Shown here: one piece after another, positions 20,149 to 22,086 of the stretch
How positions within the stretch are numbered: the stretch's first letter is position 1
Layout: every line of letters begins with the position of its first letter
Source of the DNA: a virus
Taxonomy: Duplodnaviria > Heunggongvirae > Uroviricota > Caudoviricetes
Strand: one strand, 5' to 3'
Length of the DNA: 27,080 nucleotides
IMG/VR virus record: IMGVR_UViG_2645728048_000018
Position numbers and translations under genes: made by a program
The notes under the pieces: generated by a model
Databases searched by the model: none
Seen by the model: the letters and a program-made list of their open reading frames with translations, nothing else
Told to the model about the DNA's origin: nothing

Positions 20149-22086
20149 TCAGCCGCCGGACGCACTGCCGTAGTTCACTCCGGTGATCACCGCCACCGCC
20201 GCAGTACGGCGACGACGCCAGTTGATCCAGCGCTCCGCACGGATGGCCACGCTGCCTGTCTGGAACATGGAAACCAGCTCCACCGGGGACGGCGTGGTAC
20301 TGTCGCCGGTCGGCTCAGACTGCATTTCCAGTGATGCCTCGCGGGACATATCCACTGCCACGCCGCCGTCATCAGCCAGATAAATATCCGGGGCATTCAC
20401 CAGCACCAGCTGGTCACCCACGTACTGGGAGACAATCACCGGCAGCCCCTGGAAGGAGCCACCCAGCAGGGTCATGTCCGGGTATTCCTTCTGACCCAGC
20501 GCATTTTTACGCATGGACAGTGCCAGGGCATTGGTGCTGGACATCAGCCAGACCGCACCGGTGGGCTGCAGGTTTGCTGCCACAAACTGTCCAAACGCAG
20601 CCTCTGCATCCGCATCCGGGTTACCGGTTGATGCCGTGCCCTTCACATCATGGGTGATGGACGCCGGGGAGACATCTGCCACTGCGGCTTTTTTCGGGTC
20701 CACAAAGTCTGTATCCAGACGCGCCACCACCGCTTCCGCCAGCGCATTACGGACCAGTGCATCAGCAGCCGGACTGGAAAAACGGATCAATTCTTCCGTC
20801 AGTACCGCAATGGCCGACACCTTCGCATGACTGAAGGTGATGGATTCAAAATCAAACTTCGTCAGGGGTTTTGCCTTACCCTCACCCACCCAGCCGGCAG
20901 CACCGCCGGACACCTGGGCGTGCACACGGATATTGAATGGCACCTGACGAAGTGCAGGGATCCCGCCCTGACCAAATCGCCCGATAATGGTCTGCGGACG
21001 CAGGTAATCAATAAAGTCCTGTGCGTATTCCTGATATTCAGACAGGCTGCCTGCCCACTGCGGATCCGTGGTGGTCCCCGCGCCCACTGCCGATTTCAGG
21101 ACATGATGCAGACGACTGTCATCCGGATACTGACGACGGGCCACTTCCAGGGCTTCAGATCGGACGCCTTTAGCCGCAGCCAGCGATTTGGCAAAGCGGG
21201 CGAAGCCAATCCCCTTATCCAGTTTCTGCTCCACACGGATCACCGGCGCAGAAGCCACCGCGGCCACATTCCCGTTACCGGCCTGTTTCACCGGCTGCGC
21301 CGTGGCGGCCTTACCGGCTTCCAGTTCACGCAGGCGCTTCAGGTGCGCATCCACCTGACGGATTTCCGCTGCGGTGTTGTCGTAATGCTCTTCCTCCTCC
21401 ACATCCAGCGTGCGCCCTTCCTCTGCGGCTTTGGTCATGACCTCCTCAAGGGAGGCTGCCAGCGCTGCACGCTTGTTTTCAAAACTTTTAATCTGTTCGC
21501 CAATATTCATTATGGTCTTTTCCTTATGAAAAACGGTTGTTGACTGTGCCGCAGCGCCGGCAGAAGATGCGATTTTCACCACCGGTTTCCGGTTGCCGGA
21601 CGCGGCAGAAAACGGGCGGTCGTAAGATTTAATGGTCCGGATGGTGCATTCCGCATTCGCGGGCACGGTGACGGCAGACACCTCCATCAGTTCCCAGCGC
21701 AGAAAATGCAGTCCGCCTCCGTCCAGAAAGGTGTATTCATGGGGACGGAAGCCCACGGACAGCCCCCTGACCAGCCCGGTCTTAATGGCCGCCCAGACCT
21801 CATCCAGCCGGGCAGCCAGTTGCGACGGCATATCCGGTACGGGCTTCACCAGTGTTGCCGTGATTTCCAGCCCTTCGCTGACCCGGCGCACCGTACACTG
21901 CCCCACCGGGCGGGAATGGTCATGCTGCCAGAGAAACGGGATCGCACTGCCAAACTCCGCGCCCTCCGGCTCCAGGATGTCACCATCCCGATCCGGAGAA
22001 GGCGTTGACGCAATCCCGGTGATCACCCGTTCATCCTCACTGAAGGATTTCACCGTCAGCAGGGAACAGGCCCGTTTAAGAGTCAC
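20149..22086 (-). CDS. Prohead protease (HK97 S78-type) fused in frame to major capsid protein (HK97 fold)
   Basis: The N-terminal ~190 aa carry prohead-protease motifs (GIASTPSPDRDGDILEPEGAEF...IPFLWQHDHSRPVGQ...GLSVGF). The C-terminal ~450 aa have a coiled-coil delta/scaffold-like segment followed by a capsid-like domain. An internal in-frame ATG with an upstream AAGGAAAAG lies at 21510. Confidence 0.75.
   Translation of the reverse strand: MTLKRACSLLTVKSFSEDERVITGIASTPSPDRDGDILEPEGAEFGSAIPFLWQHDHSRPVGQCTVRRVSEGLEITATLVKPVPDMPSQLAARLDEVWAAIKTGLVRGLSVGFRPHEYTFLDGGGLHFLRWELMEVSAVTVPANAECTIRTIKSYDRPFSAASGNRKPVVKIASSAGAAAQSTTVFHKEKTIMNIGEQIKSFENKRAALAASLEEVMTKAAEEGRTLDVEEEEHYDNTAAEIRQVDAHLKRLRELEAGKAATAQPVKQAGNGNVAAVASAPVIRVEQKLDKGIGFARFAKSLAAAKGVRSEALEVARRQYPDDSRLHHVLKSAVGAGTTTDPQWAGSLSEYQEYAQDFIDYLRPQTIIGRFGQGGIPALRQVPFNIRVHAQVSGGAAGWVGEGKAKPLTKFDFESITFSHAKVSAIAVLTEELIRFSSPAADALVRNALAEAVVARLDTDFVDPKKAAVADVSPASITHDVKGTASTGNPDADAEAAFGQFVAANLQPTGAVWLMSSTNALALSMRKNALGQKEYPDMTLLGGSFQGLPVIVSQYVGDQLVLVNAPDIYLADDGGVAVDMSREASLEMQSEPTGDSTTPSPVELVSMFQTGSVAIRAERWINWRRRRTAAVAVITGVNYGSASGG

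Follow-up and report, generated by a model that had tools for sequence, protein, structure and literature searches.

Several viruses obtain two head-assembly proteins from a single reading frame. In phage lambda (C/Nu3), phage Mu (I/Z) and the herpesviruses (UL26/UL26.5), a long protease-bearing product is accompanied by a shorter in-frame product that originates from an internal start, and the scaffold part shared by the two carries the protease into the procapsid. In HK97, by comparison, the protease is targeted non-covalently. HK97 encodes its protease and capsid protein as separate genes in the order portal, protease, capsid (10.1101/2025.06.14.659615). Here we analyze the head-assembly gene of an HK97-like lambdoid prophage, represented by the virus record IMGVR_UViG_2645728048_000018 (27,080 nt, termed the window in the following; all coordinates refer to it, and the gene and its neighbours are read on the minus strand). 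The gene resembles HK97 gp4/gp5 with respect to the protease family (Pfam S78), the capsid fold and the scaffold being an N-terminal domain of the capsid protein, but differs in that protease and capsid protein are fused and encoded before the portal gene. Comparison with related loci suggests that this open reading frame (ORF) is probably a nested gene with two products, a protease-delta-capsid chain of 69 kDa and a delta-capsid chain of 48 kDa. This predicted pair would follow the same logic as C/Nu3, I/Z and UL26/UL26.5. In those systems, one product is protease-scaffold, the other is scaffold, and the capsid protein has a gene of its own, whereas here the shared part would include the capsid protein itself.

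Public records already describe the fusion, with its two domains and its place ahead of the portal gene, and the gene is ordinary on these points. BP-4795 (ORF56), 2851 (gp60), YYZ-2008, 1717 and related E. coli prophages carry the same gene at equal length and with 95–99.9% nucleotide identity, in the same neighbourhood of HNH, TerS, TerL, fusion, small ORF, portal and adaptor genes; we found no material difference to these Shiga toxin (Stx) phages and prophages, for which the public annotation consists of one coding sequence (CDS) without an internal start. Among phage records, 92 contain the gene at 98–99.9% nucleotide identity, including those of the Stx phages 2851 (99.8%), YYZ-2008, JLK-2012 and BP-4795 (98.1% for ORF56), with annotations such as ‘putative major head protein/prohead protease’ or similar. 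Of 5426 complete E. coli genomes, 1255 carry the gene as well, in as many as seven copies each, and RefSeq (PGAP) lists it there as a single CDS for a ‘phage major capsid protein’; it is among the commonest E. coli prophage head genes, Shiga toxin phages included. A more distant counterpart is ORF003 of phage PAJU2 (AP009624), a fused S78 protease, delta and capsid protein with 48% identity over the full length, annotated as ‘structural protein; prohead protease fused capsid protein’ and encoded, as in the window, between terminase and portal genes. PAJU2 differs in its Pseudomonas host and in that the C-terminal extension of the portal protein is annotated as a separate ORF. At the junction of its protease and delta parts, GGAGG is located 8 nt upstream of an in-frame ATG (M197).

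Protease-capsid fusions recur in tailed phages of lineages other than that of the window. They have been described for small-genome actinobacteriophages, as protease-scaffold-capsid fusions (PMC7302621), and for Rhodobacter phages of the RcC cluster, as protease-capsid fusions (10.1101/2021.08.04.455094). The NCBIfam protease/capsid fusion family NF045541 is of like architecture and belongs to another lineage as well; the window protein is a non-member, scoring 54 bits against a cut-off of 525. Protease, scaffold and capsid are also combined in one gene of ~693 aa in Gifsy-2, as the ‘tripartite capsid gene’ (PMC12315714), and in Pseudomonas phage MD8, as gp5 (PMC8508860). These two differ from the window gene by a lambda C / ClpP-like protease and a lambda Nu3-like scaffold and therefore represent an independent fusion.

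A first, sequence-only reading of the window had assigned prohead protease and major capsid protein to one 645-aa ORF (20149–22086) and a coiled-coil delta/scaffold segment to the capsid half. The ORF indeed runs in a single frame and is conserved across genera, and profile searches matched both halves above the Pfam cut-offs, for Peptidase_S78 (PF04586; aa 48–152, 34.7 bits, cut-off 21) and Phage_capsid (PF05065; aa 386–635, 53.1 bits, cut-off 24.2). The HK97 capsid equivalog of NCBIfam (TIGR01554) scored 78.1 bits (cut-off 27.5), and the corresponding protease equivalog (TIGR01543) remained under its cut-off of 59 with 46.5 bits. PHROG 617, a full-length fusion family termed ‘major head protein’, matched with an E-value of 1e-261, aligning residues 1–639 to profile positions 7–626 of 626. 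For structure prediction by AlphaFold2 we used an alignment of 74 diverged homologues, which gave a mean predicted local distance difference test (pLDDT) score of 83; an earlier run with a shallow 17-sequence alignment reached a pLDDT of 41 and was discarded. The model consists of a beta-rich domain (aa 1–146), a disordered linker (aa 147–190), the long helices 195–222 and 229–262, shorter helices up to about residue 331 and an alpha/beta domain extending to the C-terminus. A helical delta/scaffold segment is thus predicted with high confidence (aa 195–262), and the profile matches residues 4–77 of the head protein of the capsid-forming phage-inducible chromosomal island (cf-PICI) EcCI2 (9gyi_B). 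Foldseek comparison of the capsid part was consistent with an HK97 fold of the predicted structure, and the protease part has the prohead-protease (assemblin-like) fold. Residues H55, S110 and E135 are invariant in 74 of 74 fusions (36–78% identity); judged from their motif positions, H55 and S110 probably represent the conserved catalytic His and Ser of the S78 protease.

The sequence-only reading had further proposed that an ATG at 21510 could give rise to a capsid-only product, in analogy to lambda C/Nu3. This ATG (first base at 21510) is in frame, is preceded by 5'-TCATAAGGAAAAGACCATA-3' and encodes M193, which is positioned where the disordered linker ends, two residues ahead of the first helix of delta. 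A start codon in frame and a putative ribosome-binding site at the beginning of the scaffold part are what one would expect of a nested gene. The proposal gained support from the start codon, the Shine-Dalgarno (SD) motif, codon choice, local base composition and the capsid start of relatives in which protease and capsid are split into two genes, all of which would be in line with an internal initiation site.

A scan of one genome per species yielded 49 loci with relatives of the gene. In 33 of the 34 fused loci with DNA available (down to 41% identity), an in-frame start codon preceded by an SD core (AGGA, GGAG, GAGG or AAGG) 4–11 nt upstream is present at the N-terminus of delta, while the same SD-core test succeeds at 5–17% of the in-frame codon positions of the same genes. 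The start codon is ATG in most fused loci, TTG in L023 and GTG in L033, both of which are intact; the decayed copy L035 has TTG at this position. Alphaproteobacterial versions carry AAGGAGG upstream, ranking among the top 0.5–1.6% of positions. At the protein level, M193 is invariant in an alignment (A1) of 17 sequences with ~75% identity, within a linker that is otherwise variable, and 129 of 144 fused representatives have a Met no more than 8 residues upstream of a conserved EQI motif, the other 15 showing mostly Val or Leu there. The 50-nt segment centred on the internal ATG has a GC content of 0.30 (0.60 for the gene; lowest 1% of windows) and a predicted minimum free energy (MFE) of −3.5 versus −14.2 kcal/mol (weakest 2% of predicted structure), and the median percentiles around the internal start of 35 fused loci were likewise 1% (GC) and 2% (MFE).

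The SD-like motif has been kept in different codon registers, as AAG GAA (K-E) in the window and as AAA GGA (K-G) in most enterobacterial relatives. We analyzed the codons of 20 genes of the enterobacterial type, 16 of which encode Gly at the junction. This Gly is specified by GGA in 16 of 16 cases, in contrast to a GGA share of 0–20% at each of 38 other conserved Gly columns, and about 54% of the codons for conserved residues differ between pairs of these genes. The fixation of a synonymous GGA codon indicates a constraint that is not explained by selection on the protein. A further stretch with nearly constant nucleotides lies ~45 nt upstream of the internal ATG (21550..21580, residues ~171–181) and encodes AGATA; it is near-identical at the nucleotide level in loci L003–L020 (gctggcgctacagca), with GGC as the Gly codon in 20 of 20 genes. 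Its constancy may reflect no more than preferred codons, or the stretch may belong to the internal initiation region.

Relatives with separate genes provide another line of evidence. In the split loci L038–L041, L043–L046 and L049, the homologous Met is the first residue encoded by the capsid gene, and in most of them the protease stop codon overlaps the capsid start codon as ATGA. Such an overlap means that only a shift of one reading frame at the junction sets the split arrangement apart from the fused one, with a 1-nt indel as the simplest route between them. Capsid-only cluster representatives align from query residue 193–196 onwards, and when the capsid parts were placed in a rough neighbour-joining tree, the split forms were scattered over no fewer than four separate places among the fused ones.

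Based on these observations, head assembly might proceed as follows. Initiation at the GTG codon 22086 would give the 69.0-kDa protease-linker-delta-capsid chain and initiation at the internal ATG 21510 the 48.2-kDa delta-capsid chain. The two would be expected to co-assemble, as they share the parts that drive assembly, the delta and capsid portions being identical. The protease would thereby enter the prohead through covalent attachment and could dispense with a separate targeting peptide, and the relative strength of the two initiation sites would set the ratio of protease to capsid protein. Once the prohead has assembled, the protease would cut away the linker, delta and itself, leaving a mature capsid protein of ~33 kDa. 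HK97 gp5 is cleaved between K103 and S104, followed by a ...SAGSL... stretch. By analogy, delta may end at K331, which would place the mature N-terminus near S332 and predict a capsid protein of 33.1 kDa. The full-length product starts with GTG (22084–22086; stop codon 20149–20151) in the window and in both Stx-phage loci examined (BP-4795 and 2851), and with ATG in related loci of nearly all other genera; although entirely speculative, the use of GTG rather than ATG may reduce the share of the full-length product in the Stx-phage version. Somewhat less firmly than for the window gene itself, we favor the extension of this scheme to all S78-protease/delta/capsid fusions of this family across the Proteobacteria: these would be dual-coding, with most capsid subunits free of protease and a minority of full-length chains delivering it, and the fused and split states could interconvert by single-nucleotide indels at little cost because the capsid initiation site would always be active.

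Several points weigh against an internal start. The internal SD motif of the window gene is modest (AAGGA, 10 nt from the ATG); 21% of the in-frame codon positions reach or surpass the energy of its duplex with the anti-SD sequence (−6.2 kcal/mol), by which the internal ATG ranks third among the ten in-frame ATGs. SD strength in the single sequence is therefore unremarkable, so that the case has to be made by comparison with relatives. These related loci are phylogenetically non-independent, and their counts overstate the number of independent observations; one of the 34 fused loci (L037) lacks a clear SD motif. A linker rich in Lys, Asn and Thr lowers the GC content by itself, the K-G/K-E motif could serve a role at the protein level, and ribosomes translating the full-length frame cross the internal site, which may limit initiation there. 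In a rival explanation, the gene makes a polyprotein and nothing else; every capsid subunit carries a protease (~415 copies in a T=7 shell), all copies are removed by autoproteolysis and the internal ATG is a mere residue. The SD-like sequence would then serve the protein, or be left over from a history of repeated changes between the split and the fused arrangement, and frequent switching to the split state could maintain the capsid initiation signals. The upstream start has a strong SD motif, and according to a rough volume estimate the prohead interior could hold ~415 copies of the 36-kDa internal part. The accessible descriptions of the Gifsy-2 (PMC12315714) and MD8 (PMC8508860) fusions do not mention an internal start, and the words ‘internal’ and ‘start codon’ are absent from the MD8 text. 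We nonetheless regard the polyprotein-only explanation as unlikely. The fused state is dominant and deeply conserved, and a vestigial SD motif should decay where the linker is otherwise under little constraint. The synonymous GGA is fixed all the same, no codon other than ATG, GTG or TTG occupies the start position in the loci with DNA, and predicted mRNA structure is weakest around the internal site.

Alternatively, the SD-like motif might cause a translational pause at the domain boundary that allows the protease to fold before delta emerges. That ribosomes pause at SD-like sequences within genes is a published but disputed idea. The location of the motif exactly at the end of the disordered linker would suit such a function, which would, however, leave unexplained why a start codon is conserved with substitutions confined to ATG, GTG and TTG, why its distance to the motif stays within 4–11 nt and why split relatives begin their capsid protein at this very site; we consider a pause site very improbable. 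Next to no weight is given to the notion that the fusion is an artefact, due either to a sequencing indel or to a decaying pseudogene that joins two genes. Split relatives do differ by a single frame shift at the junction, and internal deletions mark some of the E. coli copies as decayed. Nevertheless, the identical continuous ORF is present in the 92 phage records and in 1252 complete E. coli genomes, relatives of 644–648 aa occur in many genera, the protein belongs to a cluster of 9916 members (90% identity), the gene is carried by inducible Stx phages and the PAJU2 homologue is annotated as a virion structural protein. An indel that actually separates two genes, named in the sequence-only reading as an observation that would speak against it, is excluded by the continuity of the ORF across phages, genomes and genera, and an indel or pseudogene origin of the fusion was rejected on these conservation data. 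An internal start that yields a delta-capsid product stays our preferred explanation, and it should strike specialists as plausible rather than surprising.

The fusion is widespread beyond E. coli. Full-length relatives of 644–648 aa with ~75% identity were found in Salmonella, Enterobacter, Klebsiella, Serratia, Pantoea, Kosakonia and others. Of the 150 best representatives of 50%-identity clusters, 127 are 600–720 aa in length, in a ranking that favors long matches, and the fused form extends over Enterobacterales, Pseudomonas, Alpha- and Betaproteobacteria as well as one genome bin of the Vicinamibacterales; both findings argue that the fusion is under selection. Some database entries deviate from this picture. 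Shorter E. coli variants (580–605 aa) were considered as natural linker deletions and set aside as uninformative, being decayed copies with deletions within folded parts. Loci L031 (Arsenophonus endosymbiont) and L035 (Brucella pseudogrignonensis) contain stops or frame changes inside domains and are apparently decaying prophage copies. Three proteins of 1079–1094 aa (P0001, P0123 and P0132) have ~440 extra N-terminal residues before the protease-capsid part, which in P0001 include a TerL ATPase domain; a likely origin of these entries is a read-through or frameshift call by which TerL and the fusion gene were merged.

The features of the locus are compiled in Table 1. The sequence-only reading had also remarked that the order of TerL, protease-capsid and portal is the reverse of the usual one. 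This order was confirmed in the window and by synteny comparison with the related loci: TerL, protease/capsid, portal with C-terminal extension and adaptor follow each other wherever flanks are present among the 49 loci. The order is shared by Enterobacterales, Proteus, Pseudomonas, Alpha- and Betaproteobacteria and the Vicinamibacterales bin, alike for fused and split protease/capsid, and in Enterobacterales loci the HNH gene, TerS and the small ORF are in place as well. Judged from these sequences, the position of protease/capsid before portal is a stable trait of this head-module lineage. Genes for a head-tail connector and a head completion protein also flank the fusion gene on the same strand.

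Table 1. Coordinates of the fusion gene, its parts, the candidate initiation signals and the flanking features in the window.
Feature	Position	Strand	Basis
HNH endonuclease	24662..25027	-	neighbour
TerS	23808..24371	-	neighbour
TerL, directly upstream of the fusion gene	22150..23811	-	PF03354 + PF20441
Terminator-like hairpin + T-run between TerL and the fusion gene	22108..22125	-	kept in related loci
Shine-Dalgarno AGGAGG, 5-nt spacer to the full-length GTG start	22092..22097	-	GGAGG kept in related loci
Protease-delta-capsid fusion ORF, 645 aa, 69.0 kDa	20149..22086	-	ORF + profile matches
Protease domain, aa 1–146 (S78/HK97-type)	21649..22086	-	H55, S110, E135 invariant
Linker, aa 147–192, predicted disordered, variable in sequence and length	21511..21648	-	pLDDT <50 (aa 147–190); indel columns
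Internal SD-like AAGGAAAAG	21517..21525	-	TAAGGA matches 5' part of SD consensus
Internal in-frame ATG, M193; proposed start of 453-aa, 48.2-kDa delta-capsid	21508..21510	-	comparison with relatives
Delta/scaffold-like segment, aa 193–331 (end at K331 by analogy with HK97), helices 195–222 + 229–262	21094..21510	-	AlphaFold2 pLDDT ~95 (aa 195–262)
HK97-fold capsid domain, ~aa 332–645, 33.1 kDa if cut after K331	20152..21093	-	
73-aa conserved ORF, function unknown, between capsid and portal genes	19883..20104	-	phrog_829
Portal, 861 aa, ~440-aa C-terminal extension, downstream of the capsid gene	17352..19937	-	PF04860 272 bits; phrog_2271 full length

The terminator-like hairpin is situated directly upstream of the SD sequence of the fusion gene, between the end of TerL (22150) and the start codon (22086). 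Hairpin and T-run have been kept in Enterobacterales, Proteus, Phlomobacter, PAJU2 and a Diaphorobacter locus, where both arms of the stem have changed; within this late operon, the conserved element may separate terminase from head genes as an intrinsic terminator or may form an mRNA-end hairpin. The 73-aa ORF overlaps the portal start, corresponds to ORF57 of BP-4795 and shares 34–58% identity among enterobacterial relatives. In the portal protein, the Phage_portal domain (aa 54–382) precedes the ~440-aa extension, which contains a tandem repeat (17818..18350; 3.3 copies of a 162-nt or 54-aa unit, 95% identity) and, over its last ~140 aa, a domain that weakly matches CBM_5_12 (E 1.4e-3). Nearly all related loci have such an extension after the portal; the annotations of BP-4795 and PAJU2 list it as an ORF of its own. 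The antisense ORFs on the plus strand (20650..21543 and 21632..22099) are unsupported and were treated as the usual by-product of a GC-rich coding strand.

We found no description of an internal start in the literature on protease-capsid fusions, of which our coverage was incomplete so that an earlier report is possible, and no relevant paper in the literature on virion proteomics of this Stx phage type. The nested start is unannotated in the public records examined, each of which lists one CDS. If it is indeed used, the fusion gene would be the HK97-lineage counterpart of herpesvirus UL26/UL26.5, with the capsid protein itself included, and the nested protease/scaffold design known from lambda, Mu and the herpesviruses would extend to a shared capsid protein. 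A nested start would be a simple way for a capsid built from a fusion protein to avoid one protease per subunit, and a possible means of setting the ratio of protease to capsid protein. In that case, the product that builds most of the shell would be missing from current single-CDS annotations.

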